64,000 bases of DNA from a virus (IMGVR_UViG_3300033407_000004:12134-76133), one strand, 5' to 3'; counted from the stretch's first letter, positions 35,304-57,923 are shown. A program made the numbers and translations. Notes: generated from the sequence alone by a model not told the origin.

Positions 35304-35361
35304 TTCTAACAAGCAGGTCCAGACGGACGCGAACACCGCGCCGCTGACCTGCGCGTTAAAC
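35304..35361 (+). repeat. attC-like site
   Basis: TTCTAAC-5-GGTC[C]AG[A]CGG...CCG-CTGACC-5-GTTAAAC. Confidence 0.85.
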
Positions 35362-35362
35362 A

Positions 35363-35767
35363 CTACCAGCGTTCCGAATCATCGAATCTGACAATGAGTT
35401 CGGAGGCTAATTTATAAAGCCATTCCATCATTGCCACATGCTGCTTCCAACTGTGTTTCCCGCAAAGATGAAGGTATCCGCCTTGCTGCTTTTTATCTCC
35501 CTCGCCTTCCTCTTCGCCAAACCATACATGACAACAGCCGTCCCACTTCATATATGCCGTGCAGTAAAGTTCCGTATCACAGGGCACATTTTCTTCGCCC
35601 CATGTAATTACTTCTTCAACCGTAACATTGATGTGCGTCTCGGATTTTTCTGTGATGGTAGCAATAAATCCGATGTATCCGTCAGGTCCGACGAAGTGTT
35701 TAACCAGGGGATCGACTCTCTCTGGCTTATTCTCGCTCGGCGCTGGTTTTGTTTGTTCTGTGCTCAT
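35363..35767 (-). CDS. Cassette gene, hypothetical
   Basis: Start codon and RBS lie inside the extended attC at 35698-35801. Confidence 0.65.
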   Translation of the reverse strand: MSTEQTKPAPSENKPERVDPLVKHFVGPDGYIGFIATITEKSETHINVTVEEVITWGEENVPCDTELYCTAYMKWDGCCHVWFGEEEGEGDKKQQGGYLHLCGKHSWKQHVAMMEWLYKLASELIVRFDDSERW

Positions 35768-35801
35768 CGGTTTCTCCTCGGGGGGCATCCCCGCGTTAGC
35801 T
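35698..35801 (+). repeat. Extended attC-like site containing RBS and start codon
   Basis: Minus: GCTAAC GCGGGGATG...GTC[G]ATCCCCTG GTTAAAC; homologous to 57006-57109. Confidence 0.75.
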
Positions 35802-35963
35802 CTTAACGTCCTTCTTCTTTCGGCGCGTTTCGGCTGATTTCTGAGCCATATCCCGCGCCTGCTCCGGTGTCAAAATACGGCGGGATTTGCTCCCGCCTTT
35901 GCTCGCCAATTCTTTTGCCGCTTTTTTGAGGCTGATTATGCCTCCGCAATGTGGGCACCTCAT
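35796..35963 (-). CDS. 55-aa basic Zn-knuckle protein, putative DNA-binding regulator
   Basis: Not in track: MRCPHCGG...SKGGSKSRRILTPEQARDMAQKSAETRRKK; TAATG coupling; stop in the TAAC box. Confidence 0.7.
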   Translation of the reverse strand: MRCPHCGGIISLKKAAKELASKGGSKSRRILTPEQARDMAQKSAETRRKKKDVKS

Positions 35964-36301
35964 TACTCGTCCTCGGCATCACGGGCAGTTTCGCGCTCAA
36001 AAATCAGGTCGCGTACCCGCTGCATAGACGATTCCGCGTCACCGTCCCAAAGCTCTGAGGACTCCTCTGCTGTAATAAGATCGTCCTCGATTGCATCCCG
36101 CTCCTCGCCAAGATACTCATAATAATCTGACCACCACTCGATAACTTGATCGGCGTCCTCGTGTCCCTCTACGTCTACCCGGCTCATCTCCCTGGAGCAA
36201 TCGCCGTACATTGACGTTTCGCTGCCCGGTGCAAACTCCTGCTCCCACTCCATTACTTTTTCCGCGAAATCTTGCATCTTTTTTGTCTTATACTCGCTCA
36301 T
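35963..36301 (-). CDS. Highly acidic 112-aa protein
   Basis: About 36 D/E versus 11 K/R; RBS GAGGAGG. Confidence 0.7.
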   Translation of the reverse strand: MSEYKTKKMQDFAEKVMEWEQEFAPGSETSMYGDCSREMSRVDVEGHEDADQVIEWWSDYYEYLGEERDAIEDDLITAEESSELWDGDAESSMQRVRDLIFERETARDAEDE

Positions 36302-36354
36302 TGCCGCCTCCTCAAGATGCGGGCCTTTTGTGGTCCCGTCTTACTCTTGAGACA

Positions 36355-36383
36355 ATATTAGCATAAGCGGTTATGCTTGTCAA
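36355..36383 (-). promoter_or_regulatory. Consensus promoter with palindromic operator
   Basis: TTGACA-17-TAATAT; the spacer carries AGCATAA-CCGC-TTATGCT. Confidence 0.75.
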
Positions 36384-36417
36384 GGGGTATTTGTAAAATA
36401 AATCTAAGTCAACACCG

Positions 36418-36475
36418 AGCTAACAAAACGATCCAGACGGGCGCTAAAATCGCGCCGCTGATCTGGACGTTAGCT
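36418..36475 (+). repeat. attC-like site
   Basis: AGCTAAC-5-GATC[C]AG[A]CGG...CCG-CTGATC-5-GTTAGCT. Confidence 0.85.
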
Positions 36476-37306
36476 CCTATAATCGTTCCATCTTACTGTT
36501 CTGAATACCTGCTTCGCGTTCACCCACCGGGCGAACCGGCGCTGATACTCGTTCCCCTTGTCCAGTGCCATAATGTACGGGTCGTATCCCATCGCGTCAA
36601 TTACCATGACCCTGTGCATATCCTCTTCCGGGGTCGTGTGTCCGATCATCACGTACACCATGACCTTTGACACTTTCGCGGTTTTCAGGTGGCAGAGGCC
36701 GCGCAATACTTCCGCTTCATGCTCGGGGTAATCCCATGCGAAGTGAAGATACCCTTCGCGCTTCAACTTCTTCACGGCCTGCGCCTGCTCCTCGCCTACG
36801 AGCCGAGCATCAAAGCCGTGTTCGATCACCGTCAACTTTGCGTCGGCGATCTCCGCGAACGTATCGCGCCAGTTCGGATCGGCAAACGTGTTATTGTTCA
36901 TCAGCATGATCTTACTGAACCTTGGTTCGTGGAAATCCCAAATCGAATAATGCGTTTCATCGTTCCGTTGCTTCGGGACAATGCAAAAATCACACGTTCG
37001 AGGGCAAGCCTTGTACGTGTAGCCCATCGAATAATCAATCTTCGGATACAACGTATAGTCCGGCCTCATCCGGTCCATCTCAGACGGCAATTTGCCCTCG
37101 GGATACTTCGGGCCTCCTACGAGATCCGCGACAGGATCAGGCGTACCCTGGAAGAGAACAGAGGCATACGTCAGGTCGGCGCTCGTCCCGGAGAACCACG
37201 GAAAATTCAGCGTCGTCTTGTCGCCCAACTTCCGATGATAGGCGCTGATTTTCATGGCCGCGAGGTTCGGCATTTTGCTATCGGGAGTATAGATATTTAC
37301 GAGCAT
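36470..37306 (-). CDS. Radical SAM-like Fe-S protein (cassette gene)
   Basis: PNLAAMKISAYHR, CPRTCDFC (CxxxCxxC); stop in the TAAC box. Confidence 0.8.
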   Translation of the reverse strand: MLVNIYTPDSKMPNLAAMKISAYHRKLGDKTTLNFPWFSGTSADLTYASVLFQGTPDPVADLVGGPKYPEGKLPSEMDRMRPDYTLYPKIDYSMGYTYKACPRTCDFCIVPKQRNDETHYSIWDFHEPRFSKIMLMNNNTFADPNWRDTFAEIADAKLTVIEHGFDARLVGEEQAQAVKKLKREGYLHFAWDYPEHEAEVLRGLCHLKTAKVSKVMVYVMIGHTTPEEDMHRVMVIDAMGYDPYIMALDKGNEYQRRFARWVNAKQVFRTVRWNDYRS

Positions 37307-37320
37307 AGTTTGTAAACCTG

Positions 37321-37377
37321 GGCTAACCAACGTATCGACGGGTCGCAAGACCCGCGCCCGTCATCCGGGCGTTATCG
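37321..37377 (+). repeat. attC-like site; 50 nt identical (inverted) to 57541-57590
   Basis: GGCTAAC...GTTATCG hairpin. Confidence 0.85.
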
Positions 37378-37746
37378 TGTCACATAGTTTAGGATTTCCA
37401 TTTTTAATTTTTTTATCTTTTTATTTGTTAATATATGCTCATTGTGTTCGTCGTTGCAGTCGGCCCATTCGAAAAAACAATATCGAGTTATCTTATTCTT
37501 ATTTTTTATACACTCTTGCAATATCGGAATGCACTGTGGATAAATCTTATATCGTTTTTTTACCATTTCATATGAAATTGGTACATCTCGCTCGGCAATT
37601 TCGTTATTATCCCAACAAACATCATTTATATGATCAAGCTCGCTGCATTTTTCTTGCGCAGCCGCAGTCGAAATCAAAAAAGCGACGATAACAAAAGCGT
37701 CGAGCAAGCGCCTATATTCTTTTTTCTGTTTCATTCGGTCCTCCAT
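37372..37746 (-). CDS. Cassette gene, Cys-rich probable secreted protein
   Basis: FVIVAFLISTAAA signal-like stretch; start inside attC 37686-37775. Confidence 0.55.
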   Translation of the reverse strand: MEDRMKQKKEYRRLLDAFVIVAFLISTAAAQEKCSELDHINDVCWDNNEIAERDVPISYEMVKKRYKIYPQCIPILQECIKNKNKITRYCFFEWADCNDEHNEHILTNKKIKKLKMEILNYVTR

Positions 37747-37775
37747 TTCCGGCGTTGCTCACGCCTCCGTTATCT
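37686..37775 (+). repeat. Extended attC-like site
   Basis: CGATAAC-5-CGT[C]GAGCAA[G]CGCC...GGCGTTGCTCACG-5-GTTATCT. Confidence 0.75.
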
Positions 37776-38179
37776 AATTAACTGCAAGCGTTCAATGAGT
37801 TTCGCGTGATTTTTTACGATACCCATAAACGGCTGAACGATGTAATGCGGCTCTTGACTGCACTTGTCAGCCGCCGCAAGTAATTCTATACACAACGATT
37901 TTAATTCTTCCGTTTCTTGATACTGATTCACAATTTTGGCGCACATTCTCATCTCCTCAACCCCTCCACGCGCTCGCAATGAGCATGGACCTCTTCAGGC
38001 GTGTATGGATTGTCTCCCAACCTGCCGATGATGTACGGGAGCACGTGGAGTATTCCCCTCAGAGTCTTTTCGTCGGCAGTCTCCATGCCGCCATGAGATA
38101 CGGCGCGGGCAATGTTGTTTTGCGCCGCGAGGAGGTAGGTTGTCGCGGTGCTATTGGTTGGGTCGGCTTCTTTACACAT
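37770..38179 (-). CDS. Two small hypothetical genes (37770-37979, 37949-38179)
   Basis: Co-oriented; the first stops in the attC box. Confidence 0.45.
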
Positions 38180-38202
38180 GGGCTTTGCTCCCTTCGTGGT
38201 GG

Positions 38203-38628
38203 CTATTGTAATCGCCTTACTGCTTCCGTAAATGAAACTCCGTACACCTTACTTGCTACTCCGATGCTGTCGTCTTGGTATCCACATGACCAGCATTTCA
38301 CATGGTTGTTTTTTATTCTCATCGACGGTCTCTTATCTACATGCTCACCGCTGATACAGGTTGCCACTCCTCGATTGCAATCAATCAGGTTTTCTATCGG
38401 GTAATCTTTCGCTCTGGCTATCATCTCATCAGTGATTTTAAATTTGCCCGGCATCGGTTTTATCTCTTGTGTCCATTCCCTGATTAATTTTCTCGCCCTC
38501 TTTTCACTGGAGGATTGCGCCCTCCTCCATGCTTCCGCTTGCCACTGCTCTTCTTCAATCGAGACGCTGTGATTACAATACATTGGGCTGATGCGCTTCA
38601 GCCGTCTGAGTATTATCTGTTTTACCAT
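38203..38628 (-). CDS. Primase-type CHC2 Zn-finger protein
   Basis: CISGEHVDKRPSM...CWSCG...SFTEAVRRL. Confidence 0.75.
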   Translation of the reverse strand: MVKQIILRRLKRISPMYCNHSVSIEEEQWQAEAWRRAQSSSEKRARKLIREWTQEIKPMPGKFKITDEMIARAKDYPIENLIDCNRGVATCISGEHVDKRPSMRIKNNHVKCWSCGYQDDSIGVASKVYGVSFTEAVRRLQ

Positions 38629-40111
38629 TCCGATTGTTCCTGTTCGCGTTTTTTATGTTCAGGTATTTTATCAGTCTCAACGTTTCCTCTGACGGATAAA
38701 CTGCATTTGGCCGTTCACGTGGTACTGATCCGTAAAGCTCTTTGCATTTATACCATGCCCAGCCATCCTTGAATCCTTTGCTTTGTGCATACCCCCTGAG
38801 CTCCGCATATATTTTATTCCGATCCGCCACGGGGGTTTCGACAAGTTTACCTTTCTTCTTGCTCATTTTCACAAGCTCACCGTCTGCGGTTTCGACCGTG
38901 TTTTTTTGTTTCGGCAGCTCATGACCGCACCGTGGACACTTTATGTTTTTCCTCGACAACAGTGCTGAGCATTTCGGGCAAAGAACTGGAAGACTTTCAC
39001 TCTTCTTTTTTTCTTCTTTGGCAATTTCCTTTTTGTCTCTTGGTTTCCCGTCGTCCAACACTAAAGGCAGGTCGTCAGTCGGGAATCCAAGGCGACGACA
39101 TGTCCCAGAGTGGTCGAGAATAGTGGCCTTCGACTTTCCTTCTATCGGTCTCAAGATACGTCCAGCCATTTGAATATATCGAATCAGGCTCCTCGTGGGC
39201 CTAGCCAGTATCAGCACTTCACATGCCGGGAAATCCCAGCCTTCCTGAAGAATTCCGACGTTTGAAATTATTTTTGTTTTGCCACTCGTCACCCGCGATA
39301 GAATATTACTGCGCTCTTCGTCGTCGGTATAGCAGTCGATATGCTCGGCAGATACGCCTATAGCGTTGAATTGCTCAACGATGTGCTTTGAGTGAGCGAT
39401 ATTTGTAGCAAAGCACACAGTCGGTTTATTCTCTGCCAGCTTCGTCCAATGTACCACGATATCGCCAATCAGCTTTTCTTTATCAACCGCCTCACCCAGC
39501 TGCGTCTCGTTGTAGTCGCCTGCTACTATTTTCACTTTCGACAGGTCCGGCTCGCTCGGCGAGTAAATATCGCAATCAACGAGAAAGCCCTCGTCAATCA
39601 GTTCACGTATCGTTGCCGCTGATGTGATATCTTCCCAAAGTTTTCCCCAGGTGTGTTCTTTCGACATGCCTTTTGCAAACGGCGTAGCGGTCAGGCCAAC
39701 AATAATCTTGCCCTTATAATGCTCCATGAGACGATGATACGCTTTTGATGAAGCCGTTCCGTGCGCCTCGTCAATCACCACGATATCGGCTTCAGGATAT
39801 CCTCTTTTGTCTATGCTTTGAATGGAGCATACCTGAACCGGCTCATACGTCATCCTGGTATTTGATCCCTGAATTATTCCGTGGGATATCCCATCCCTTG
39901 AAATTCTGCGCGAGGTTTGATTGACAAGTTCAATTCGATTGCAGAGAAATATAATCCTCTTCGCCATCGCTATGGCTCGCCTGATAATCTCCAGCGCGAT
40001 TAATGTTTTTCCCGAGCCAGTAGGTGAATACAGTACCGCTCTTTTTTTACCGGAATAGAAAATCTCCCCTAGGGATAAAATCGCTTTTGTCTGATATGGC
40101 CTTAATTGCAT
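38573..40111 (-). CDS. SF2 (DEAD/DEAH-like) helicase
   Basis: LRPYQ, PTGSGKT, DEAH, LTATP, YIQMAGRILR, C-terminal CPKC/CPRC. Confidence 0.9.
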   Translation of the reverse strand: MQLRPYQTKAILSLGEIFYSGKKRAVLYSPTGSGKTLIALEIIRRAIAMAKRIIFLCNRIELVNQTSRRISRDGISHGIIQGSNTRMTYEPVQVCSIQSIDKRGYPEADIVVIDEAHGTASSKAYHRLMEHYKGKIIVGLTATPFAKGMSKEHTWGKLWEDITSAATIRELIDEGFLVDCDIYSPSEPDLSKVKIVAGDYNETQLGEAVDKEKLIGDIVVHWTKLAENKPTVCFATNIAHSKHIVEQFNAIGVSAEHIDCYTDDEERSNILSRVTSGKTKIISNVGILQEGWDFPACEVLILARPTRSLIRYIQMAGRILRPIEGKSKATILDHSGTCRRLGFPTDDLPLVLDDGKPRDKKEIAKEEKKKSESLPVLCPKCSALLSRKNIKCPRCGHELPKQKNTVETADGELVKMSKKKGKLVETPVADRNKIYAELRGYAQSKGFKDGWAWYKCKELYGSVPRERPNAVYPSEETLRLIKYLNIKNANRNNRNGKTDNTQTAEAHQPNVL

Positions 40112-40154
40112 TGCTTGGAAACTCCCTGTTTTTCTGTATATGAATATATATTAC

Positions 40155-40610
40155 TTATCTTTTATTCTTAAAGGCGTCCTTGTCTTTGTCCTTGTCCTTG
40201 TCTTTGTCCTTGTCCTTGTCTTTGTCTTTAAGAGTATCGTTGACCACAACTAGACGACTAATTGAGGACTCGTTGACCTCATTAAACCTAAGTCTTTGAA
40301 TAATTGACAAATGCACCCTATTTGCAGGGTTTAAATGTTTGCCGTATTGGAATGCCAGGAAATCCAAAACGAACCATCTCCCGTTCTTCAGCACCTCTAT
40401 TCGCGGTTTATCTGCGTTGAATTTCGATAGGGCATTATTGAGGTCAACTTGCACTCTAATTGTGGCCTCAAATATTCTTTTATTGGGCTTCCAAATTCCG
40501 GCATGGTCGCAGTCGTCAAGGATGAAAAACCAGAGAAACTTTTCCCCTGACGATAGATCGATAAACCAATCTTCTGTCCAGATTTCTGTTGCATGGAATC
40601 TCTTTGGCAT
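40155..40610 (-). CDS. Phage replication initiator, N-terminal wHTH domain only
   Basis: KRFHATEIWTEDWF...DDCDHAGIW; ends just after (KD)9. Confidence 0.7.
   Translation of the reverse strand: MPKRFHATEIWTEDWFIDLSSGEKFLWFFILDDCDHAGIWKPNKRIFEATIRVQVDLNNALSKFNADKPRIEVLKNGRWFVLDFLAFQYGKHLNPANRVHLSIIQRLRFNEVNESSISRLVVVNDTLKDKDKDKDKDKDKDKDKDAFKNKR
40176..40229. repeat. Nine tandem GTCYTT hexamers encoding (KD)9
   Basis: GTCCTT/GTCTTT x9 next to an AT-rich tract at 40141-40171. Confidence 0.9.
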
Positions 40611-40630
40611 GATGTCCTATCGAGCCTCAA

Positions 40631-40732
40631 AACAAAATAACCGATCCATCCAGGAGTTTCCGAACGCAGTTTGGGGACCGCGTTCCCGCAGCTTTCGCTT
40701 TTGGGCATCCTGAATGAATCGGTTATTTTGTT
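40631..40732 (-). promoter_or_regulatory. Long hairpin in initiator 5' leader
   Basis: 15-bp perfect stem AACAAAATAACCGAT/ATCGGTTATTTTGTT with inner stems. Confidence 0.65.
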
Positions 40733-40776
40733 GAGATAGATTTTTCATAAGAGTCGGAAAACCCTCAAGCCTGCAC

Positions 40777-40805
40777 AGTATATTCACTCGTATTACTCAT
40801 GTCAA
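40777..40805 (-). promoter_or_regulatory. Near-consensus sigma70 promoter for replication genes
   Basis: TTGACA-17-TATACT. Confidence 0.8.
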
Positions 40806-40900
40806 TACAATTATCGCAAAAAAGCACAGAAAAACGCCCACACTCTCCCGTATGTGTTACGGCCTGTCGGAGTCGCAGGAGTGGTGTGAGCGCTGGCAAT

Positions 40901-41239
40901 CTACAATGCAATATATTCCCTAACGGGATGTCCGTGCGTCTTCACGCTATGCGCTGGGACAAAACGGCCAGTTCGTGTAATCAACCCATGTTTGGCTGCT
41001 GCCCTCGGGATAGATCCCCACGCCTTGTGCGTCACAGGCGGACTCTGGCACACCTCCCTGAACTCCTCGAACCGAAACGCCCGCTTGCCGGCCGCTTTCC
41101 TAGCATCGCAGAATGCGCGAAGCTCACGCAGGACGGAGGCCGTCCATCCGGGCGCCGAGTCCTCGGCATGGTCCTGGGCGCGTGAAATTCCGATGTCGCG
41201 GAGTGCGGATCCTGATAGTTCAAACGCTATTTGGGTCAT
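40901..41239 (-). CDS. Hypothetical phage protein
   Basis: AWGSIP...KHGLIT...SVKTHGHPV; RBS AAGGAG. Confidence 0.6.
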   Translation of the reverse strand: MTQIAFELSGSALRDIGISRAQDHAEDSAPGWTASVLRELRAFCDARKAAGKRAFRFEEFREVCQSPPVTHKAWGSIPRAAAKHGLITRTGRFVPAHSVKTHGHPVREYIAL

Positions 41240-41252
41240 AAAATCTCCTTAT

Positions 41253-42839
41253 TTACGACGACAATTGCAATGTATTCGCCCGCTCCGCAAACACAGGCCG
41301 GTTGATATTCTTTGAGTATGACTTCACACCCTCGAACGATTCAACAACCTGCTTCTCTTCAACCGGCATTTCCTCGTATGTCTTTCTCCCATAATCATGA
41401 GGCAACCACTGTTTCCCCATACAGGCCGCAAGGTTGAATCGGCGTAAAATATTTTCATCGTTGAACCGTAAATGTATTGTTCCTTTTTTGTACACTGTCG
41501 CCGTGAAATATGTACTTTTTATGCTCGATGATTGGTTGCGGCTGAACGCATCATCAATGGCCTTGTTTAGTGATAAATAGCTTTCCATGCCATCGAAATA
41601 ATTCATAACGAGGTCAATATCCCTGAGTTGTTCCGACGCCTTGTAATCCAGTTTCCATCCGCTATATCCTACCCAGGGGTTCCCGTAGCTGGCGCGGACA
41701 GGGATGATTACTCGCTTTCCAACTTTGAACGCATTGTTCGTTTTCCATCCGTTGAACAGGTGTATGTTGTCGTTGTAGAGCCCGCCCGTGTAGGAATTTT
41801 CAATTGTGAACTTATCGAACACGTCAAGGACGGCCTCGGTCAATGTCTTCTCATGTCCGGCCATCAGGTTTAAAATGAACTGCCTGATATTTGCGGCCGT
41901 AAAATCCATATCGCACCGCTGATTAACTTGATGGTCGAATTCTTCACGCTTTTTTGAAGTAAGGCGTGAACTTACATCTTTGAGGTCAAGGGTCCGCATC
42001 CAAAAATCTTTGCGGATAACCTTGAGAAGGTGGTTCACCTGCACCTGCATTTTGCCCGTCATGTCTTCGGATCGCGAGCTATAGTTCTTGTCGGCCTCTT
42101 CGTTTATGCCGATATACTTTCCGATCTTGCGATAGTTGCGAAAATATCCGACGATGGTGTCTATGCCGATCTGCACCACCTGATTGTATTCGGCAACCAA
42201 ATCTTCCACGGCGCGGCGGGTGGTAAGCTCGTTGTTTTCTTCAATTTCAGGGCTGATGTGGCTTGCCTTATCGTTGGCTCCGGCAAATAAATCGTTCTCA
42301 ACAGCGCGTTCAATAACTATGGAGATCAGGGCGACCTCAACCCCGGTCTTTCTTTCAGCGTCAAGGAATGCGTTAGGGATGTATTCTATGTCGGCGTTCA
42401 GTTTTGCGAGCTTGCTTGCCAGTTCTTTCCTGGTGTTCGAGTACGGGTTTTTAAGCGTCTCGGCATTGAGCAGAAAAACAATCTGCCCCCTGTAGAGAAT
42501 GTCGATTGCCTTCAAAAGGTGCTTGTCGCCGTCATCAAACGGCGGATTTGCTATGATAAGGTCGAACTTGTCGGCTCCCGCGAACGCAAGAAAGTCCGAG
42601 TCTATGACCTTTATTTTCTTCCCGCGCAATGTCGCCTGCAAATCATGGTCGATCTCAATTGCGGAGATATCTAATCTATGGTGGTCGTACTTATGGCGGT
42701 TATTGAAATATTCAATCAAATCACCTTTACCGGCTGAAGGCTCAAGGATCTTCACGGGATTTCCATTGATCTTCCAGATCATCTTATCGGCAAGCTTTTT
42801 GGGAGTTGGATAGAATGTTTTGTTGTTCAGAAGTGACAT
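41253..42839 (-). CDS. N6-adenine-type DNA methyltransferase with DUF4942-like C-terminus
   Basis: FYPTP, ILEPSAGKG, IIANPPF; GWKTNNAFKVGKRVI, YKKGTIHL. Confidence 0.85.
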   Translation of the reverse strand: MSLLNNKTFYPTPKKLADKMIWKINGNPVKILEPSAGKGDLIEYFNNRHKYDHHRLDISAIEIDHDLQATLRGKKIKVIDSDFLAFAGADKFDLIIANPPFDDGDKHLLKAIDILYRGQIVFLLNAETLKNPYSNTRKELASKLAKLNADIEYIPNAFLDAERKTGVEVALISIVIERAVENDLFAGANDKASHISPEIEENNELTTRRAVEDLVAEYNQVVQIGIDTIVGYFRNYRKIGKYIGINEEADKNYSSRSEDMTGKMQVQVNHLLKVIRKDFWMRTLDLKDVSSRLTSKKREEFDHQVNQRCDMDFTAANIRQFILNLMAGHEKTLTEAVLDVFDKFTIENSYTGGLYNDNIHLFNGWKTNNAFKVGKRVIIPVRASYGNPWVGYSGWKLDYKASEQLRDIDLVMNYFDGMESYLSLNKAIDDAFSRNQSSSIKSTYFTATVYKKGTIHLRFNDENILRRFNLAACMGKQWLPHDYGRKTYEEMPVEEKQVVESFEGVKSYSKNINRPVFAERANTLQLSS

Positions 42840-43241
42840 TATTTCCTCTCCACCGCCGCCGACACCAAATACCCGCACGGGTAGCACACTAGCTTGAACG
42901 CAACGGTTGTATGCTCCTCAATCGTCAAAGTCTTCCCGCACTTCCCGCAGCGGAACTTGATGTGAGTTTCGCGGTGAAGGTTGTTGGAAATCTTCATTTC
43001 AATGCGCTTTCTCGCCATTTCCATACAGGGAAGGAAAGTTCAATCCGATTCGCGTATCGTTCTTTTTGGATAATCCGGTCAGCGACCCGCAATGCAATTT
43101 CCTCAGATGATCTCGCCAATCCATGTTGCGGTAGGCCGCGCTTGGCGATACATGCCAGATCGCGAGCCATGAATGGTTTTTCTTGCATCCTGGCATAAAT
43201 ATCGTTAATCACGCTTGTTGCGATTTCCACTCCGTGAACTT

Positions 43242-48317: not shown

Positions 48318-48323
48318 GAGTTG

Positions 48324-48756: not shown

Positions 48757-49286
48757 ATGTCAGAAGAAAAGTTTTGGGTAGTTTGGGATTCATGCTACGC
48801 GCCTTCAAAAAAACACCTTAACTGCGAAGACGCGAAAACGGAAGCGCGAAGGCTTGCCCGGAAGCATCCCGACAAGGCGTTTGCCGTCCTGGAAGCGGTG
48901 TTCGTTGTAAGGGCGATGGAGACCCCGCTTGAAGAGCATGAGCTAGGAAGCGAATGGAAATCAGCACAATCAGGCGACAGGGTTTTGAAACCCAACAGCA
49001 GCAAAAACGGGGGAATGGAGAATGCGAAATGACGATTCCCGCAACAGTCAGAGACCTCATTGACGGCATTAAGCCCGGTGACACCCTTGTCGTCCTCGAT
49101 CGCGAAGAAGCAGACGGTCAAGGCCGGCATGAATTCACCGCATACTGGAAAGACGCGGACAGACTTCGAGGGCAGTGCTTCCGTGCGGACTTGCAGGGAT
49201 TTCTGGCTCGGCATGAGAAAGCAACTGTGGTGACGCAAGAAGCGCTGAAGGCAGCGTATGAGGCACGGAGAGGGGTGGCGGCATGA
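48757..49286 (+). CDS. Two early hypothetical genes (48757-49032, 49029-49286)
   Basis: RBS and ATGA overlaps; AKTEARRLARKHP.KAF.VL motif. Confidence 0.6.
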
Positions 49287-51259
49287 AACAGATACGGCTT
49301 ATTCGTTTAGAACTTCGGGATTTTCAGGGAGGATCGTTTTCGTTGGATGCGGACGGTGAGGACGTGAACGTGTCGGGCGATAACGGAACCGGCAAAACGC
49401 GCCTCGCCTCGGCATTCTCATGGCTCCTGTTCGGGAAAGACAGCCTTGGCCGCGTTGATTTCGAGCTTAAAAATCTGGACGCCCAGGGCGAGGCCGAACA
49501 CGGTCTTGAACATTCCGTCGAGGGTACGCTTTCCGTGGACGGCGAAACCGTCACTCTCAGGCGCGTCTATTCAGAATCGTGGACCAAAAAGCGCGGGTCT
49601 GCAACATCGACATTCTCCGGTCATTCAACTCAGTATTATGTTGACGGCGTACCGAAGCAGGAAAAGGATTATAAATCGTACATTGCGGATCTCGCCGGCG
49701 ACGAGTCGATATTTCGACTCCTGACAAGCCCCACGGTGGCACCTGCCCTTCACTGGCAGAAGCTCCGCGCCCTGCTTCTGGACGTATGCGGCGACATGAC
49801 GGACGCCGATGTTATTGCCTCTGACGCGCAGCTTGCCCCGCTTGCAGCCATTCTCGGCAAGAAATCAATCGACGATCACCGTAAGGTTGTGACCGCCCGG
49901 AAATCCGAAATCAACAGGGAATTGACAGCCCTGCCGGTCAGGATCGACGAGCAGCGCCGGTCCCTACCGAACGTGACGGTACTCGACCGCGGGAAGATCA
50001 CCGCAGAGATTGCCAGTCTCGAAACGTCCATCAATGCCTCAAAGCTCAAGCTCCAAGGAGTCGATACGGGCGGTGCCATTGCGGACCTGTCTAAGAGGTT
50101 GGCCGGGGTCAATGCCGACATTCAGAAGTTGGAAAGCGGCCATTACACCGAAACGATGAAGACGGTCAACGGTTTAAATCAACAGGCTACCGAGGCCGCC
50201 GATCTGTTACGGTCTAACCGCAACCGGCTATTGTCCATTGATGGCGATACAAAAAGCCAGTTGGCGGCGATATTGTCCATCGACAAAGAGTTGTCGTCTT
50301 TGCGCGATAAATGGACTGCCGTTGATGCCGAGACGTTTCAGGACACCACCGTAGACACATGCGCGGCCTGCGGGCAGTCTTTGCCCGTGAACCGCGTCCA
50401 GGAAGCCAGAGAGAAAGCATTGGCGGCATTCAATCTTGACAAGGCTGAACGTCTTGGCCTTATCGAACGCCGGGGCCATGATCTTGCAGAAGACAAAGAG
50501 CGTCGGCAGGGTATGGTTGACGCCTTGGGTAAAGAGCGTGAAATCGTTGGGTCGGGATTGCCGGAGATTGCGGATAAGGTCCAGACGGTCACGGCAGAGC
50601 GCGACCTTGCTCGCAAACAGTCCGCAGACTACACGACGATCCCCGGACGCTCCGAACTTCATCTTGAGGCCGCAAGCATTCAGCGGCAGATCGAAGTTGA
50701 ACGCGCCGGGCACTCTCAGGACGCCGGAAAGATACGCGAAGAAATCAGCACCTTGAGCGCTGTTCTCTTGAATGCAAAGGCCGACGCCGACAAATTCACC
50801 CGCCGCGAACAGGGCGAAAAGCGCATCGAGGAATTAAAGGAGTCGGAAAAGAAGTTGGCCGCCGAGTTCGAGAAGTTGGAAGGCGAGCTTTACCTTTGCG
50901 ACCAGTTTATCAAGACAAAGGTTTCTCTCCTGAATGACCGCATCAATGGCCGGTTCGAGATTGTGCGTTTCAGGCTGTTCACGCAAAACATAAACGGCGG
51001 AATTGAACCCTCATGCGAGATCACCGTCAACGGGATACCGTACAACGGTGGGCTTAACTCGGCGGCACGGACCAATGCAGGGCTTGATATTTGCCGCACC
51101 TTGTCGGAGCATTACGGGATACTGGCCCCTACATGGGTCGATAACGCCGAAAGCGTGAGCCACCTTGTGGACATGAAGGCACAGGTGATCCGGCTTGTAG
51201 TGAGCGAACCCGATAAAGCCCTGCGCGTGGAAATGGCGCGGCAGGCGGTAGCGGCATAG
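49283..51259 (+). CDS. Rad50/SbcC-like AAA ATPase
   Basis: GDNGTGKT, coiled coil with CAACG hook, LNSA signature-like, WVDNAES. Confidence 0.9.
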   Translation: MKQIRLIRLELRDFQGGSFSLDADGEDVNVSGDNGTGKTRLASAFSWLLFGKDSLGRVDFELKNLDAQGEAEHGLEHSVEGTLSVDGETVTLRRVYSESWTKKRGSATSTFSGHSTQYYVDGVPKQEKDYKSYIADLAGDESIFRLLTSPTVAPALHWQKLRALLLDVCGDMTDADVIASDAQLAPLAAILGKKSIDDHRKVVTARKSEINRELTALPVRIDEQRRSLPNVTVLDRGKITAEIASLETSINASKLKLQGVDTGGAIADLSKRLAGVNADIQKLESGHYTETMKTVNGLNQQATEAADLLRSNRNRLLSIDGDTKSQLAAILSIDKELSSLRDKWTAVDAETFQDTTVDTCAACGQSLPVNRVQEAREKALAAFNLDKAERLGLIERRGHDLAEDKERRQGMVDALGKEREIVGSGLPEIADKVQTVTAERDLARKQSADYTTIPGRSELHLEAASIQRQIEVERAGHSQDAGKIREEISTLSAVLLNAKADADKFTRREQGEKRIEELKESEKKLAAEFEKLEGELYLCDQFIKTKVSLLNDRINGRFEIVRFRLFTQNINGGIEPSCEITVNGIPYNGGLNSAARTNAGLDICRTLSEHYGILAPTWVDNAESVSHLVDMKAQVIRLVVSEPDKALRVEMARQAVAA

Positions 51260-51293
51260 TAATCTATCAATAACCCATAAAAGGAGGCTTCAC

Positions 51294-52412
51294 ATGGCAC
51301 CCAACACAGCAACAGCAGAAAAGGACAAGGCATTGACGCCGACAAAGAATGCAGCGGCACCGGCGGCGGGAACGGGAACGACGCTGGCAATTCAGGCCAA
51401 GAGCATCGTCGATATTGTCGAGGCCCGCGTCCAGCAGTTCATCAAAAACGGTCAACTCGATATGCCGAAAGACTACAGCGTGGACAACGCCATGAAATCG
51501 GCGTGGCTCGTGCTCCAGAACGTCGAGGACCGTGACCACAACAAGGCGCTGGCAGTCTGCACCCGTGACAGCGTGGCGAACGCACTGCTTGACATGGTGG
51601 TCCAAGGCTTGAACCCCGGCAAAAAGCAGGGATATTTTATCGTCTACGGAAAGCAGTTGACCTTTCAGCGGTCCTATTTCGGGGCAATGGCCGTCGCGCA
51701 GATGGTCAATCCGAAGATCGGCGAGTTCGCCTTTGCCGTGGTCTACGAGGGCGACAAGTTCAAGTATGGTATACAGAACGGCAAAAAGATCGTAACGCTC
51801 CACGAACAGGACATTGACAGCGTGGACAAGACGAAGATAAAGGCCGCTTACTGCATCGCCCTGGACAAGGCGGGCGAGCCGATGAAGACCGAGATCATGA
51901 CCTTTGACGAAATTAAGACTGCGTGGAAGCAGTCGAAGATGAGCCCGATCGACGAGAAGGGAAACGTCAAGGAATCCAGCACACACGGGAAGTTCACTGC
52001 GGACATGGCGCTCAAGACCGTGATCAATAAGTGCTGCAAGGTGATCATCAACGCATCGTCCGACAATACCCTGCTCCTGGAGCGCATCAACCGCAACGAA
52101 GACTTGTCCGACTCCGCTGCCGTCGCCGTGGATATTCAGGATCACGCCAATACCGGAGATGTCGTGCAGATCGAAGGCGGGACGGTGGACGCCGGGACCG
52201 GAGAGGTACGCGAGGAACTGGAGCCGGAAGATCAGGCGCAACCGGAGAAAGAAGACGCGCCCGTCTGCGTGTGCGACGACATGACCAAACAGGGCGTGAA
52301 GGAATGGTCGTGCCCTGTACACGGGACGTACAAAAACGGAAGGTTCTCGGCCCCACAGTTACCGCTCGGCGGCACTGACAAGGCTGGCAAGAAGAAAGGC
52401 CCCGGCTTCTAA
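51294..52412 (+). CDS. recT: RecT-family recombinase
   Basis: SVANALLDMVVQGLNPGKKQGYFIVYG, DMALKTVI. Confidence 0.9.
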   Translation: MAPNTATAEKDKALTPTKNAAAPAAGTGTTLAIQAKSIVDIVEARVQQFIKNGQLDMPKDYSVDNAMKSAWLVLQNVEDRDHNKALAVCTRDSVANALLDMVVQGLNPGKKQGYFIVYGKQLTFQRSYFGAMAVAQMVNPKIGEFAFAVVYEGDKFKYGIQNGKKIVTLHEQDIDSVDKTKIKAAYCIALDKAGEPMKTEIMTFDEIKTAWKQSKMSPIDEKGNVKESSTHGKFTADMALKTVINKCCKVIINASSDNTLLLERINRNEDLSDSAAVAVDIQDHANTGDVVQIEGGTVDAGTGEVREELEPEDQAQPEKEDAPVCVCDDMTKQGVKEWSCPVHGTYKNGRFSAPQLPLGGTDKAGKKKGPGF

Positions 52413-53128
52413 TGATGCACTTCAAGCCCATAGCGAGCTCGTCCAAGGGAAACGCTTACATCGTCGAGGCTGACGGGGTAGCGCCCCTGCTTCTTGAGGC
52501 CGGGATACCGATCCGCTCGTTGCGGGAAAAGATCGGCTTCAACATGACGGGACTCGCCGGGTGCCTTGTGAGTCACGAGCATGGCGATCATAGCAAGGCC
52601 ATCAAAGACCTGCTCAGGGCAGGCGTGGATTGCTTTATGTCATGGGGCACGGCTGAAGCGCTCGGCGTAATGGGCCATCATCGAGTCTATACCATCGGCG
52701 ATCACACGGTATTTGAGCCTGTGAAGATATCCACGTGGACGGTCAAGCCGTTTTTGCTTGAACATGATGCGACCAGCCCTACAGGATTTTTCATCGCTCA
52801 CGGAGACGAACGGCTGTTATTCATTCCAGACACAGCCTACGTCAAACAACGCTTTGAAGGCGTTACAATCATCGCCATAGAGTGCAATCACATAGGCGAC
52901 ATCCTGAGCAATAACATCATCGAAGGGCACATACCCGCCGTGGTGGGGAAGAGGGTCCGGCGAAATCATATGAGCCTCGAACAGGTAGTAGCAATGCTGA
53001 AAGCCAACGACCTTTCACGCTGCCGGCGCATATACCTCTTGCACCTTAGCGACGGCAATTCCGACGAGCGCCGGATGGTGCGCGAGGTCCAAGAAGCCAC
53101 CGGCATCCCCACGGAAGCCGCACAATAA
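52412..53128 (+). CDS. Metallo-beta-lactamase-fold nuclease
   Basis: ASSSKGNAY, SHEHGDH, HD, LLHLSDGNS. Confidence 0.9.
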   Translation: MMHFKPIASSSKGNAYIVEADGVAPLLLEAGIPIRSLREKIGFNMTGLAGCLVSHEHGDHSKAIKDLLRAGVDCFMSWGTAEALGVMGHHRVYTIGDHTVFEPVKISTWTVKPFLLEHDATSPTGFFIAHGDERLLFIPDTAYVKQRFEGVTIIAIECNHIGDILSNNIIEGHIPAVVGKRVRRNHMSLEQVVAMLKANDLSRCRRIYLLHLSDGNSDERRMVREVQEATGIPTEAAQ

Positions 53129-53140
53129 AAAGGAGCCCCA

Positions 53141-53830
53141 ATGCCAGACAAAAAACCTATTCAGATTTCAGGAAAAAACCTCGCAGCACTCGCCATGCCA
53201 GACGCTTGCCCGCGCTGCTTCTGGATCAAGAACACCGTAAAGAATTTGCCGTTTCAGATATTCCCCGGCATTTTCGCATCGATCGACAGCTACACAAAAA
53301 CCGTGGTCCACTCCGCGTTCGATCATGTCGGTAAGGCCCCTGCATGGCTCCCGGAATTATCCGAGGCTGTCAGGTATCTCAAGGTTCCGCACTGGTCGAA
53401 GTCCAAGCGCATAGACCCAGAGACCGGGATTATCGTTACCGCTGTTCCTGACGAACTCTTGGAATGCGCTGATGGATCTCTGATTATTCCGGACTACAAG
53501 ACCGCACGATACACCGATGGGCAAGACAAACTGTTACCCCTCTACCGGGCACAGCTTAACGCTTACCGCTGGGTATGGCAGGGGCTCGGTGCCACCGTTA
53601 AATCGTTGCCGCTGATCTACTGCGAACCGATGACCGATGCTCCGGTATTTGCCGTCGCCGGCTTCGATCTGCGTTTCATCCCGAAGACAGTCCTGATTGA
53701 CATTGACGACAATGTGGTGCCTGAACTTCTGCGGCAAGCGCACAGGATATTGACTTCCGGCATACCTGAGAAAAGCAATGAGTGCGGTGATTGCGAGAAG
53801 CTGAGTGCGCTTGTTGAGAAAGTCAGGTGA
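53141..53830 (+). CDS. PD-(D/E)xK nuclease
   Basis: CPRCFW, PDEL...IPDYKT, QLNAY, C-terminal CxxC. Confidence 0.8.
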   Translation: MPDKKPIQISGKNLAALAMPDACPRCFWIKNTVKNLPFQIFPGIFASIDSYTKTVVHSAFDHVGKAPAWLPELSEAVRYLKVPHWSKSKRIDPETGIIVTAVPDELLECADGSLIIPDYKTARYTDGQDKLLPLYRAQLNAYRWVWQGLGATVKSLPLIYCEPMTDAPVFAVAGFDLRFIPKTVLIDIDDNVVPELLRQAHRILTSGIPEKSNECGDCEKLSALVEKVR

Positions 53831-54276
53831 CGACCGAACACTTCCACGCCCGCACCGCCGCCGAGATCGACCAGTGCGCCAATTTTCTGAAGCTGGCGAT
53901 CCCTGCCCAAGGGTGGAGAATAACGTACACTCCGTGGAGGGAAAAGCGGTCGCTCAGTCAGAATTCGTTTATGCACGTAATATACCGGGACATCAGCAAC
54001 TACCTAATCAGCAAAGGCCGTTCAGAGTGGACGCCTGGAAAAGTCAAATTGATGCTTAAGAACAAGTACCTTGGCTGGACGGAAGTTGAGTTCACCGATG
54101 TTGTGACCGGGCAAGTAACCACCAGAGAAGTGCTGAAATCATCGTCAGCATTGGATGTAGGGGCGGCAAACCACTTCATAACTGAGATCATAGAATGGGC
54201 GGCCAGCATCGGCATTGAGATCAAAGTACCCGCTGAGTGCGAGTACCGGGATGTGTTGAATACGCAGAATAGGTAA
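53827..54276 (+). CDS. NinB/YbcN-like protein
   Basis: KRSLSQNSFMH, KLMLKNKYLG, FITEIIEWAA; stop in the first attC box. Confidence 0.8.
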   Translation: MTTEHFHARTAAEIDQCANFLKLAIPAQGWRITYTPWREKRSLSQNSFMHVIYRDISNYLISKGRSEWTPGKVKLMLKNKYLGWTEVEFTDVVTGQVTTREVLKSSSALDVGAANHFITEIIEWAASIGIEIKVPAECEYRDVLNTQNR

Positions 54277-54347
54277 CGTGCGCATGACGCGCCGCAAGGC
54301 GTGTCGCTGTCGATGCGCTGGTTAAAATCCAGCGCAAGAAAGGACAC

Positions 54348-56406
54348 ATGAGAAACGATTCTCTTTATAAATTTATGGCAGAAGAAATTCAACAAGCCAA
54401 AACGGAGAAACAAGCCGAAGTCATCGCCGGGAACATTGTCAAAGAGGCACTTTGGCAGGGAGAGCTTACAGCATACCGAAAGCTCTTGTCACATGTTCAT
54501 GCCGAAAGCGGAACGAATGACTTTCTTCCCTTGTTCGGAAAATTTTAACAATGAGTTGTTCGGTGCGGTAGCATCCGAACGAACGACTCGTTAGGCCATT
54601 TCACAGGGAGGGAATAAGCAATGTATAAACCGTACAAGCCAGAAGAAAAGATTGTTGACCGTGCTGTCGAGCTTTGGAAACGAATGCTGAAAAATCCGAA
54701 ATTCGACAATGGAGATTCAAGCGTTAACGGGTTTTTCGCTTCTTCGATGGCTAAGATGATCCCGAACAATGCCACGGATGAAGTTCTTCAGGCATTCGGG
54801 GACAACCTGAAAGCCGCGCTGATGAACCCAGACCCGGAATATAAACAAGAATTTTTCCACTCTTCGTTGGGCGTCGATTACGGACCCGACAAGGTTCTTC
54901 ACGAAGCCGCTGAAAAGGCCGGTCTAAAAATGGAGTTCCCCTGGAAAACTACCATGTCCCTTTGGACTGAGTACGTTTCGGTTTCGGCGGGGTACGGAGC
55001 CGATCGCGTTTATCATTACCCGTTGGCCGATGGGCGGTGGCTGATGACGACGCTTTGCGGTTCTGATATTTCAAAGATCATAGCATATTGTGAAGGCAAA
55101 GAACTGGCGTTCGAGATCGAGGGTCAAAAGGTCTAACACCAATTTGACGCGCAAGCGTCAGCGCAGCCGCAGTCGAAATTTTGGTTATGCGTGCTTTCAA
55201 TCTTAACTTCATAGGAGCAGACAAATGAAAACAATAGTTGTCAGATGGGTAAAAGAAGAAACATTCGGTTACGATAAAGCCATGCGAGTTGAATTTTCTT
55301 GCCATGAACGGTTTGTAGTTGGCAGTCGCTTTGACTTTGGATTTTTCAGCATAGCCACAGACGAGGGATACACAATTGTTTCATTACCGATGGAAAAGGA
55401 TTTAGACGCATAACGCGGAGGTAACGATGCGGAGCGAAGCGGAGCAATCAGTTGACCGACTGGTTGTGTGCGATGTATGCAAACAGGAAATACAGGAAAG
55501 CGCCATGACCGATGTTGATGATCTTGAGCCGAACGGCGATCATAAGACGTTGCTCGTTTGTCCGATGTGCATTGATGCCATGCAGCCGGTACATGAAAGC
55601 ATGATGCAAGTAACGCGAGAAATGGCATGTGACGCAGGGGACCGGAGCATGGAAGGTTCGTGGATTAAGTGGTAGTACACAACACGAACATGACCCGCTT
55701 TTGACGGGTCGATGTTCTGGTTGGACGCGGGTTTTGTCCAGCCAGAACGGAAAGGAATTAATTATGGATAAGCGGCAGCAATACGGATACATCAAAAATC
55801 AAATATGCCTTTTCTGCGGAAACATCGAGGACATAGAACCGGACGTGGAGCGCCCGTCATGCGGCGTTTGTGAAGTTGTGGGCAGCGAGGTTGAAACATA
55901 CGGGCATTGCTCGGAGTGGACGGAAATTAGATAGCGTCCAACGTCCGGGTCAGTCGCGCGTCTTGCGCGACGATCTGGACACGGTGGTTAGTCTCGGGGT
56001 TAATTCTATGAACGACAAAAAAAGAGCCGCACTCGATACGCTGATTGATAAAGTAAAACACGCCTATGAGCTTTTGGAGAACATGGACCACGACACGCTT
56101 GCCATGTTGATATTAGATTCTCCTTCCATTCGAGAATACTACGCTACTAAGAAGAAAGCAATGTCGGTTTGTATTTACTGCGGTATGGCAATAGAGCACC
56201 CGGAAGACCCAGAAAAAATCGCAGAGATTCATCATGCCCTTGTAAAGCATGATGCGCGTTGTCCTCAGAATCCGTTTGTTTTTGCGTTGAAACAGGTTAG
56301 ACAAATTGCCAAAGACGGACGGGACTGGAACCCCGGACATTTCTGTGAATCTCGGAGCAAGATGCAGTCAATCGTTGACCGGTGCGACAATGTTTTAAGA
56401 GACTAA
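54348..56406 (+). CDS. Six cassette genes (54348-54548, 54621-55136, 55225-55413, 55427-55675, 55764-55934, 56008-56406)
   Basis: One ORF per attC interval; several stops fall in TAAC boxes; products unrecognised. Confidence 0.7.
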
Positions 56407-56490
56407 CGCCTGAGTTGTGGGGCGGGCCGCTTGCGGCACGTCCCGCACGAACGACGGGTTATACGGCTGGCGGTTACTACGGAGAACAGG

Positions 56491-57306
56491 ATGCACAACT
56501 TGCAAAAAAATATGAGCAACGCCACTTTGCCGCCAGTGCTTGACGCCTGCTGCGGTAGCCGGATGTTTTGGTTTGACCGCAAGGACGACCGGGCGACGTT
56601 CGTGGACAAGCGCCGGGAGCGGCACACGCTGCCCGACATTTCCAGCAAGGGCGGAAGCCGCGAACTGGTAATTGACCCTGACCACTTGGCAGACTTCACC
56701 GACCTGCCTTTCCCGTCCGACACGTTTGCGCTGGTGGTTTTCGATCCACCGCACTTCGAGCGCAACGGCGCGACCGGATGGGTGGGGTTGAAGTACGGCA
56801 CGCTGAAAGGCGATTGGCAGTCGATGCTGCGCGAGGGATTTGCCGAATGCTTCCGCGTGCTGCGGCCTGAAGGGGTTTTGATTTTCAAGTGGTGCGAGGA
56901 CGAGATACCCGTTTCGCGGATTCTTGCACTGACACCGGAGCGCCCGCTTTTTGGCCACCGCAGCGGCAAGCAGCAGAAGACGCATTGGGTGACGTTTATG
57001 AAGCCGTATAACGCGGGGATGACCCGCACAGGAGAACCAATGAGCGACGAAAAAACCATGAACGAAACAAATGAGAATAAACCAGCCGGAGTCGATCCCC
57101 TGGTTATGACAATCGCGGATATAAGAGAATCTCTTGGAGTAGGACACAAGCCGATGCTTTCCGAACTGCCGGGCATTTGCAATGAATTTCGATTACTACT
57201 TTCAGAGGCTCGGTCATTTTGCCTTCGCATGGATTGCGACGGAGATCCACTGAATGACGATCTGGCGAGACGCATACAAATAGCTTTACGGATAACGCGA
57301 GGATGA
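56491..57306 (+). CDS. Class I SAM methyltransferase (DPPH) read through an attC into a second gene starting at 57040
   Basis: VLDACCGSRMFW, VVFDPPH, LRPEGVLIFKW, HWVTFMK, then YNAGMT (attC) and MSDEK. Confidence 0.8.
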   Translation: MHNLQKNMSNATLPPVLDACCGSRMFWFDRKDDRATFVDKRRERHTLPDISSKGGSRELVIDPDHLADFTDLPFPSDTFALVVFDPPHFERNGATGWVGLKYGTLKGDWQSMLREGFAECFRVLRPEGVLIFKWCEDEIPVSRILALTPERPLFGHRSGKQQKTHWVTFMKPYNAGMTRTGEPMSDEKTMNETNENKPAGVDPLVMTIADIRESLGVGHKPMLSELPGICNEFRLLLSEARSFCLRMDCDGDPLNDDLARRIQIALRITRG

Positions 57307-57366
57307 GACGCGGCTTTCCGCGTCGTTCTCGATCCTCTGGTTAAAATCCAGAGGGAAAGGAAAGGC

Positions 57367-57923
57367 ATGAACGAGCAGGAGAAAAAAGAAGTCGAAGAGA
57401 GCATAACTTTATCAGAAGAAATTGTCCGTGCAGCTTGTATTAAGGTGCTCACAGATAAGCATTTTGAACTTGCGAAACGAAGCTATCCGCCGCCAAAAAT
57501 CCTTTTGGATTTGGCACAGGAGATGAGGGAACTTAAATTTTAACGCCCGGATGACGGGCGCGGGTCTTGCGACCCGTCGATACGTTGGTTGGACTCAGAG
57601 GTGATCGAATGGCATGGACATATTTGAAATTCAATAAAGCCGGGAACATCTTGAAACGCTCCCCGAAATTGCCGGGCGAGAGACACGCATACCTCGGGTT
57701 TGATCTTCTTCGGATGATGACCGTGATCGGGTATACCGAGCGGGGCGGGTTCAGTTCGTTCCTCGGACCGAACGTAAACGACGATTGCAATATTGTCGCC
57801 TGGGCTCCGCTGTCTGAAAAAGAGAGCGCCGACATTGATGTGATCCAGAAAAATTGTCCCTTTTATCCATGGGACGATGGAGATACATGCGACGCATCGG
57901 AAATACCGCTGTTGATTCGATGA
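57367..57923 (+). CDS. Two cassette genes (57367-57543, 57609-57923)
   Basis: RBS present; bounded by attC boxes. Confidence 0.6.

Follow-up and report, generated by a model that had tools for sequence, protein, structure and literature searches.

Within a 64,000-nucleotide stretch of viral DNA (hereafter the window), which corresponds to bases 12134-76133 of the 76,133-base IMG/VR viral contig IMGVR_UViG_3300033407_000004 from an uncultured phage, we identified 15 integron attC-type hairpins, ten on the plus strand (54271-57594) and five on the minus strand (35304-37775). The hairpins resemble authentic attC sites in sequence and in structure, and the comparisons below confirm, as far as sequence can tell, that the coding strand is the attC bottom strand in both arms of the phage genome. 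The two clusters are probably genuine integron arrays without an integrase (CALINs, groups of attC sites that have no integron-integrase), one in each divergently transcribed arm, composed of phage-type cassettes of reversed polarity and served by an integron integrase (IntI) acting in trans. The array-wide reversal of polarity appears to be what is new here; what extrahelical bases and the replication strand contribute has already been published. An earlier account made without database searches (the sequence-only reading) had claimed that the sites of both arms are inverted relative to the genes of the arm, and this was borne out by the strand calls of a covariance model, the position of the extrahelical G, the gene families and the longest open reading frames (ORFs).

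Repeat finding, a simple scan and folding revealed that both arms have intergenic hairpins with TAAC...GTTA at their flanks. A stricter hairpin scan overlooked the bulged sites, and a looser scan followed by a covariance model was used instead. The model, R1, was built from an alignment of nine sites in their local coding-strand orientation, and the whole window was scanned with it unfiltered. Five sites (R3b, R5, R7, L2 and L5 in Table 1) were outside the training set, and L4 copies a training site. The scan found nothing beyond the 15 sites with E < 1 in the window and no match in the first 12 kb of the contig. No Rfam family matched the window, as expected for a DNA site.

In an attC site, the bottom strand has RYYYAAC as its 5′ box and GTTRRRY as its 3′ box; the bases that stay extrahelical are on the arm facing AAC, and the one at position 16 is a G, G16 (PMC5027507). 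As a reference we used two plasmid class 1 integrons (L001 and L002) with genes annotated on the plus strand. Model R1 matched 8 out of 8 of their authentic attC sites (aadA1 twice, aadB, qacL, psp, estX, aadA2 and cmlA1) on the strand opposite the cassette genes with 17.7-35.4 bits, and the gene strand gave merely partial matches of 7-8 bits. Because the model matches the class 1 sites opposite their genes, the coding strand of the phage corresponds to the canonical bottom strand. The bottom strand is therefore also the non-template strand in transcription, as the sequence-only reading had stated, and this applies to both arms with the KilA-N gene as the sole exception.

The window sites were aligned with class 1, TJE1, Nitrospirota and other phage sites (57 sites in total). 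The unpaired G, which had been placed on the coding strand near GTT, for example in GC[T]GTC[G]ATG at 54306, was found to be invariant (57/57); its distance from GTT, 9 nt on the 5′ side, makes it G16. The second example given for it, CGA[T]CTG[G]AC at 55971 in attC R5, agreed with the sequence there, but in the fold these bases can pair via G-T wobbles. The AAC and GTT triplets are present in 55-57 of the 57 sites, including all 15 window sites. Paired cells amounted to 91.7% compared to 67% in shuffled alignments, every slid control was far lower, and 205 double-sided changes were counted against 70 in the shuffles; the alignment was fitted to the model and these pairing and covariation figures thus lean towards structure. 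DNA folding with AAC/GTT pairing enforced left the G at -9 unpaired in 10 of the 15 window sites. Purines prevail on the coding strand of the site cores (G 261 / C 211, A 174 / T 134), in line with what is published for bottom strands (PMC5027507). Altogether the hairpins show AAC/GTT boxes, an imperfect hairpin with a spacer, an L box and G16, and cross-recognition with authentic sites by a model of sequence plus structure.

The strands of the genes agree with this assignment. The DNA methyltransferase and radical SAM cassette genes lie on the attC bottom strand (Table 1), a 171-aa phrog_8937 protein is encoded on the plus strand, and a NinB-like match on the plus strand is weak (E 4.8e-4, under the Pfam cut-off). 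The longest ORF of the interval is on the strand of the arm in almost all intervals. The two exceptions are the methyltransferase interval, inside which the true frame does not stop, and 57595-57924, where the two strands tie (118 and 129 aa). The canonical order, with the ORF on the top strand and the attC after it, was found in neither array. Only the KilA-N gene lies on the attC top strand, as previously noted, and is canonical relative to attC L1, from which it ends 3 nt away. It faces against the transcription of its arm, and as no matching box lies beyond it, the left array has no defined distal end.

Beyond the individual sites, the boxes carry the signature of cassettes. Between successive sites, the 3′ box of one and the 5′ box of the following one are complementary at 7/7 positions in 11 of 14 junctions (the others reach 6, 6 and 5), compared to usually just 4-5 of 7 between the two boxes of a single site. 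Such complementarity across junctions is explained by single crossovers in the conserved triplets, which insert circular cassettes. In both arrays we thus see co-oriented sites with ORFs between them and a cassette-wise box match, as in a cassette array or CALIN.

Four lines of evidence, all independent of the bulged G, support the claim of the sequence-only reading that each attC precedes its own ORF. The ribosome-binding site (RBS) and ATG of the downstream ORF lie inside the loops of four sites (R7, L2, L5 and R3b). At the ends of the arrays, the first site of each has an unpartnered 5′ box, and the final ORF of the right arm lies between two boxes, the second of them without a hairpin. The rarer type-B attC precedes the methyltransferase cassette both in the window and in the viral contig L006, and a type-A site follows it in both contigs. 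Finally, in viral loci that bear IntI the last ORF before intI has an attC upstream and none downstream; in L095, for instance, the order is attC, methylase, attC, PAPS reductase, intI. Bottom-strand crossover at AA|C, the canonical position, likewise assigns the attC to the downstream ORF. In nine cases an ORF terminating at a site takes its stop codon from the TAA within that site's TAAC.

The window contains two copies of a 50-nt hairpin body (37325-37374 and 57541-57590; 100% identity). Four other viral contigs hold five more copies with 0-1 mismatch (Table 1), which gives 7 places in 5 contigs. The identity ends exactly at AAC and GTT, and the outer boxes and flanking ORFs are unrelated. 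Chromosomal integron arrays, in which the attC sites are homogeneous, typically combine a common hairpin body with outer boxes that vary, and by this analogy the 50-nt body may be the phage counterpart of such sites.

Since the sites of one array must be co-oriented, the window provides only two independent arrays, and we looked at the polarity of other loci. A strand-neutral pattern search of IMG/VR, which selected one attC family, returned eight contigs. Seven of them have arrays of 2-7 co-oriented sites; the eighth, L005, is a chance match to the pattern inside a 300-aa ORF and has no match to model R1. The polarity is reversed in L006, L007, L008, L009/L057, L010 and L011, where the array ORFs and long flanking gene clusters run on the strand of the bottom-strand match, and it is mixed in L004. 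The survey of viral contigs that had been proposed as a check of the inverted polarity therefore added six reversed arrays and one mixed. Apart from the helicase of L007, these loci share little with each other or with the window.

A true IntI is encoded in two of the pattern-search contigs, G005 (436 bits) and G001 (292 bits), the former of which also encodes a DnaB-like helicase, a dNMP kinase, a phage integrase and tail-fibre-like proteins. With a profile built on five IntI proteins we recovered at least 479 IMG/VR contigs with IntI relatives; among the 80 of them that were retained (L071-L150), these proteins are 47-64% identical to the IntI of G005. In 79 IntI-bearing viral loci all 34 matches to model R1 were on the intI strand, nearly all of them upstream of intI, which is the canonical attC-to-intI geometry. 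Nine of these loci have at least two matches, and in six (L072, L084, L095, L116, L131 and part of L094) most ORFs run in the direction of intI, on the bottom-strand side. Pfam families back the bottom-strand cargo of L095 (C5 DNA methylase, E 7e-34, and PAPS reductase, E 8e-26), L084 (N6/N4 methylase, E 6e-36) and L072 (PAPS reductase); for the other three of these six loci the reversed polarity is suggestive.

The bacterial loci of the same attC family behave differently. A pattern scan of genome contigs gave 26 matches, about the chance level for a 20-base pattern in 596 Gb (estimate ~30), and only loci confirmed by model R1 were used. Chromosomal integrons of Nitrospirota (L053-L056), with a true IntI above the TIGR02249 cut-off, gave 41-53 bits, comparable to the scores within the window, and share the G16. 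Their matches lie on the intI strand and their array ORFs mostly on the opposite strand, which is canonical, whereas the window arrays are reversed and without IntI.

Integrase-less attC arrays, often with a DNA methyltransferase, have been described in the phages TJE1 (Tetrasphaera), P12002L (Polaribacter) and PH101 (Pseudoalteromonas), and five of six phage attC sites recombined with IntI1 (PMC9892861). Both CALINs and complete integrons in phages were thus already published; the arrays were called typical in structure and the ORF-to-attC polarity was not discussed (PMC9892861). The window resembles these phages in its integrase-less arrays and methyltransferase cargo. TJE1, however, is canonical: its three sites were matched on the minus strand with 30.6-41 bits, and orf1 to orf3 are on the plus strand. 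The window has 15 out of 15 sites reversed, in two larger arrays (5 and 10 sites) mirrored in opposite arms. Among the papers searched we found no prior account of array-wide reversed ORF-to-attC polarity in phages, an absence that is no proof of novelty.

Class 1 cassettes (aadA1, aadB, aadA2, cmlA1, qacL, estX) share with the window sites the RYYYAAC/GTTRRRY boxes, the unpaired spacer, the L box with G16 and a length of ~60 nt. They carry the gene on the top strand with the attC after it and are expressed from Pc beside intI1, while the phage cassettes carry the gene on the bottom strand with the attC before it, and must be expressed from phage promoters. Chromosomal integrons contain single cassettes with an inverted ORF, such as toxin-antitoxin cassettes with their own promoters. 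These also have the ORF on the bottom strand but are scattered exceptions, whereas in the window a whole array is reversed and dependent on read-through. Further counterparts are the IntI-bearing IMG/VR contigs (G005/L057, L072, L084, L095, L116, L131), which are also reversed and carry methylase, PAPS reductase and radical SAM cargo; in them intI lies downstream of and co-directional with the array, and the window contig has none.

We propose that the cassette unit reads, on the coding strand, C, hairpin, GTTRRRY, RBS, ORF and RYYYAA, where the stop codon would often be the TAA of the next TAAC and some loops would supply the RBS and start codon. The cassettes would be expressed by read-through phage transcription and exchanged by an integron integrase acting in trans, with the crossover expected at AA|C, where each hairpin has its 5′ end on the coding strand. 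This integrase could come from the host, given that Nitrospirota chromosomal integrons have attCs of the same family, or a co-infecting phage could provide it, as related viral contigs encode IntI. The preferred reason for the polarity would be that phage operons are unidirectional: cassettes and intI would have to follow phage transcription, which would force the ORFs onto the intI strand, i.e. the bottom strand. As a consequence the bottom strand would be more exposed, intI could be part of the same operon, and cassettes crossing between host and phage would be antisense and silenced. IntI also inserts cassettes at non-att GWT sites without strand or leading/lagging bias (10.1101/2022.09.11.507474). 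This might be a route by which arrays were founded in phage DNA; it cannot account for the polarity, which belongs to the cassette itself. We further consider, tentatively, that phages might keep their own pool of reversed-polarity cassettes with cargo typical of phages (methylases, PAPS reductases, radical SAM), shuffled by phage or host IntI and functionally insulated.

Several observations weigh against reading the clusters as reversed-polarity arrays. In 5 of the 15 sites the minimum-energy fold has no unpaired G at -9: the bulged G of L1 is shifted inwards by one position, L3 is ambiguous, and R2, R5 and L2 slip register. Folding, which the sequence-only reading had put forward as a check, thus agreed with it for ten sites and not for these five. 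Strand selectivity does not come from the extrahelical bases alone and differs between sites (PMC5027507), so that the coding strand is the putative working strand for the cognate IntI. Recombination of the cassettes in this phage is likewise putative. The hairpin body and the ORF are not strictly linked, since an identical body occurs with unrelated ORFs in five contigs. Part of L004 looks canonical, as do three of the IntI-bearing viral loci. The ORF strands of most related loci were judged by ORF length only, a weak guide in GC-rich DNA; moreover, the pattern picked one attC family and IMG/VR may hold misassigned bacterial DNA.

Among the other explanations, the one offered by the sequence-only reading is that the polarity was selected: with a bidirectional origin between the arrays (~40 kb), every bottom strand would be both lagging-strand template and non-template strand, which would maximise the folding of hairpins and the turnover of cassettes. 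We regard this as unlikely. The arrays do flank the central region and mirror each other, and the AT-rich 39-41 kb segment, which has the lowest GC of the wider stretch (0.454), contains inverted repeats and palindromes and lies beside a helicase gene. Yet the protein encoded at 38573-40111 is a helicase of the SF2 ResIII/SNF2 type, and among the genes near 40 kb we recognised neither an initiator nor a primase nor a replicative helicase. The GC-skew check did not find the expected origin: the cumulative skew has its minimum at 47.4-48.0 kb, in the divergent promoter region (GC 0.418) and exactly at the transcription switch, and nothing is seen at 40 kb. The turn is no clean origin marker, because skew and transcription are inseparable here; it does not refute the replication idea either, because 48 kb still lies between the arrays. 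A late rolling-circle phase, as known from lambdoid phages, would if present place one array on the leading-strand template. In V. cholerae, excision is raised when the bottom strand is on the lagging-strand template (PMC13108822), and by analogy with it the layout of the window might be the most recombinogenic one. However, unrelated viral contigs are reversed too, co-oriented with their operons and intI, and transcription alone explains this more simply.

It is rather improbable that the arrays are inactive relics, captured once and now ordinary phage genes, with a polarity that is accidental and kept for phage transcription. The lack of an integrase in the contig, the degenerate sites L3, R3b, L2 and L5 (low score or ambiguous fold) and the methyltransferase that lost its stop and reads into the next cassette would fit such a history. 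The 7/7 boxes at most junctions, the 50-nt body identical in both arms and in four other contigs, and the invariant bulged G and AAC/GTT instead argue for recent activity or strong constraint, and the same polarity is found beside intact IntI genes. We give even less credence to the view that the strand call is wrong for the cognate integrase, or that both strands or ends are used, the hairpins being constant spacers between swappable ORF modules. It draws on the identical body, which stops precisely at AAC and GTT while the boxes and ORFs to either side are unrelated, and on published evidence that top strands recombine at low frequency and that sites differ in selectivity (PMC5027507). Against this, the bacterial hosts of the same attC family obey the canonical geometry with intI and ORFs, the viral loci have 34/34 matches on the intI strand, and the ends of the arrays fit hairpin-first units; shared bodies with variable boxes are also a typical property of chromosomal arrays. 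Finally, the hairpins are situated intergenically on the transcribed strand and would form in the mRNA, which would suit terminators, RNA stability elements or REP-like repeats, and the missing Rfam match is neutral in this respect. That the hairpins are such elements and not integrase substrates is nevertheless very improbable, considering that model R1 cross-recognises authentic attC sites, G16 is invariant, IntI co-occurs in related contigs, and cassette-wise box complementarity is predicted by no terminator or REP model.

If the preferred reading, integrase-less arrays of reversed-polarity cassettes, is correct, phages would be users of integron recombination with a cassette pool of their own, beyond carrying stray bacterial cassettes. 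Integrons are usually viewed as bacterial, and strand selectivity as serving the correct placing of promoterless genes behind Pc. The phage design would keep the attC-to-intI geometry and turn the genes round. Polarity could then be a simple sequence criterion for telling phage-type from host-type cassettes in metagenomes, and the two pools would be insulated, as cassettes crossing between host and phage would be antisense and silent. The design makes several questions testable: whether transcription or replication exposure of the bottom strand drives turnover, by what means host and phage pools are kept apart, and how cassettes are born, given that two cargo genes have attC-less phage homologues. 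The methylase and PAPS reductase cargo suggests, from the family names only, that the arrays could be hot spots for swapping anti-restriction functions.

The sites and the principal genes are listed in Table 1.

Table 1. attC sites and associated features of the window, with scores of model R1
Feature	Position	Strand	Remarks
attC R1	54271..54327	+	first right-array site; 56.1 bits; bulged G and T on 3′ arm; TAAC contains stop TAA of upstream NinB-like gene; 3′ box GTTAAAA complementary 7/7 to 5′ box of attC R2; own 5′ box without upstream partner
attC R2, type B	54543..54596	+	40.1 bits; box match to R3 6/7; type-B L box GTT.../...[G]AAC, as in aadA attCs
attC R3	55131..55190	+	50.7 bits; G at -9 unpaired; 3′ box vs next site 7/7
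attC R3b, weak	55408..55469	+	untrained; 29.3 bits, E 2e-4; boxes GCATAAC/GTTGTGT match neighbours 7/7; loop contains ATG (55427) of following ORF
attC R4	55677..55726	+	43.5 bits; clean fold, one bulged G
attC R5, ambiguous fold register	55936..55993	+	untrained; 43.3 bits; boxes vs both neighbours 7/7; G paired via wobbles in minimum-energy fold
attC R6, type B	56401..56464	+	39.9 bits; upstream of methyltransferase cassette
attC R7	57006..57109	+	untrained; 32.5-43.2 bits; homologue of L2, inverted; long loop with AGGAGA and ATG (57040) of following ORF; methyltransferase frame reads through
attC R8	57290..57346	+	61.5 bits
attC R9	57538..57594	+	56.3 bits; 50-nt body 100% identical to L4 (exact inverted repeat)
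Orphan box GTCCAAC	57925..57931	+	closes last right-arm cassette; 7/7 complement of R9 3′ box GTTGGAC; no hairpin after it
attC L5	37686..37775	-	first left-array site in transcription order; untrained; 19.9 bits, E 0.03; bulged G at -9; loop contains RBS and ATG of ORF 37372-37746
attC L4	37321..37377	-	54.1 bits; body shared with R9
attC L3	36418..36475	-	53.5 bits; degenerate homologue of L1; TAAC contains stop of radical SAM gene
attC L2	35698..35801	-	untrained; 16.3-28.2 bits; homologue of R7; long loop with RBS and ATG
attC L1	35304..35361	-	last left-array site; 62.6 bits on - vs 23.5 on +; bulged T, T, G on 3′ arm (- strand)
DNA methyltransferase cassette gene	56431..57039	+	attC bottom strand; phrog_954, E 2e-68
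Radical SAM cassette gene	36470..37348	-	attC bottom strand; phrog_9298, E 3e-52
KilA-N gene	34729..35301	+	Pfam PF04383, E 2.2e-22
Other copies of the 50-nt body	L007:2935-2991, L007:2256-2312, L009:4842-4898, L010:708-764, L011:778-834

The methyltransferase has a homologue in the L006 array (47.5% identical) that stops on the TAA of its TAAC. The frame in the window misses the corresponding stop at attC R7, where the TAA is out of frame, and continues in frame (56431-57306) into the next cassette ORF, which has its own ATG and RBS; from the sequence a 291-aa fusion of the two is possible. Homologues of the 171-aa and radical SAM cassette proteins (33-51% identity) were found in nine other viral contigs (L062-L070), with no attC within 1.5 kb of them, which indicates that the cassette cargo of the window consists of phage genes. 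When 19 window proteins were compared by tblastn with all fetched loci, the methyltransferase, shared with L006, was the sole common cassette.

The contig has linear ends and is ~89% complete according to CheckV. Genes of the window are transcribed from the minus strand between ~5.7 kb and 48.3 kb and from the plus strand beyond, and both GC and AT skew track this switch. No PF00589 or TIGR02249 match, and hence no tyrosine recombinase or IntI, was found anywhere in the 76-kb contig at this completeness. Neither array has beside it the IntI above the TIGR02249 cut-off that marks a complete integron, and with no IntI gene in the contig we filed both as CALINs. Around the arrays are accessory and recombination genes, namely SbcC-like and RecT-like genes, a metal-dependent hydrolase and the weak NinB-like match, and the array region further encodes two DNA methyltransferases, the SF2 helicase, an RNA ligase, the radical SAM and KilA-N proteins and HNH endonucleases. 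Megablast of 35-58 kb of the window gave no match among GenBank phages. The flanking NinB-like protein led to no relatives, and the flanking hydrolase led to one contig, L003, without attC sites. The helicase of L007 (3343-4839) is 75% identical in protein sequence to that of the window, and the L007 attC array lies directly downstream of the helicase gene, in the same arrangement as in the window; L007 is thus a likely replication-module relative.

A TAAC/GTTA-ended palindrome at 40631-40732 was considered as a 16th site and rejected, having no bulges, no spacer and no match to model R1 at E<10. It is near-perfect, with 25-nt arms, in an AT-rich intergenic stretch beside the helicase module, and could be an origin, operator or terminator. 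Close to it, a tandem 12/18-nt repeat (GTCCTTGTCTTT units) occupies 40176-40229 within an ORF (40155-40610) that has no family match. At the other end of the region, ~350 nt past the orphan box that ends the right array, lies an HNH endonuclease gene (58283-58801; weak HNH_3 match, E 8e-5).

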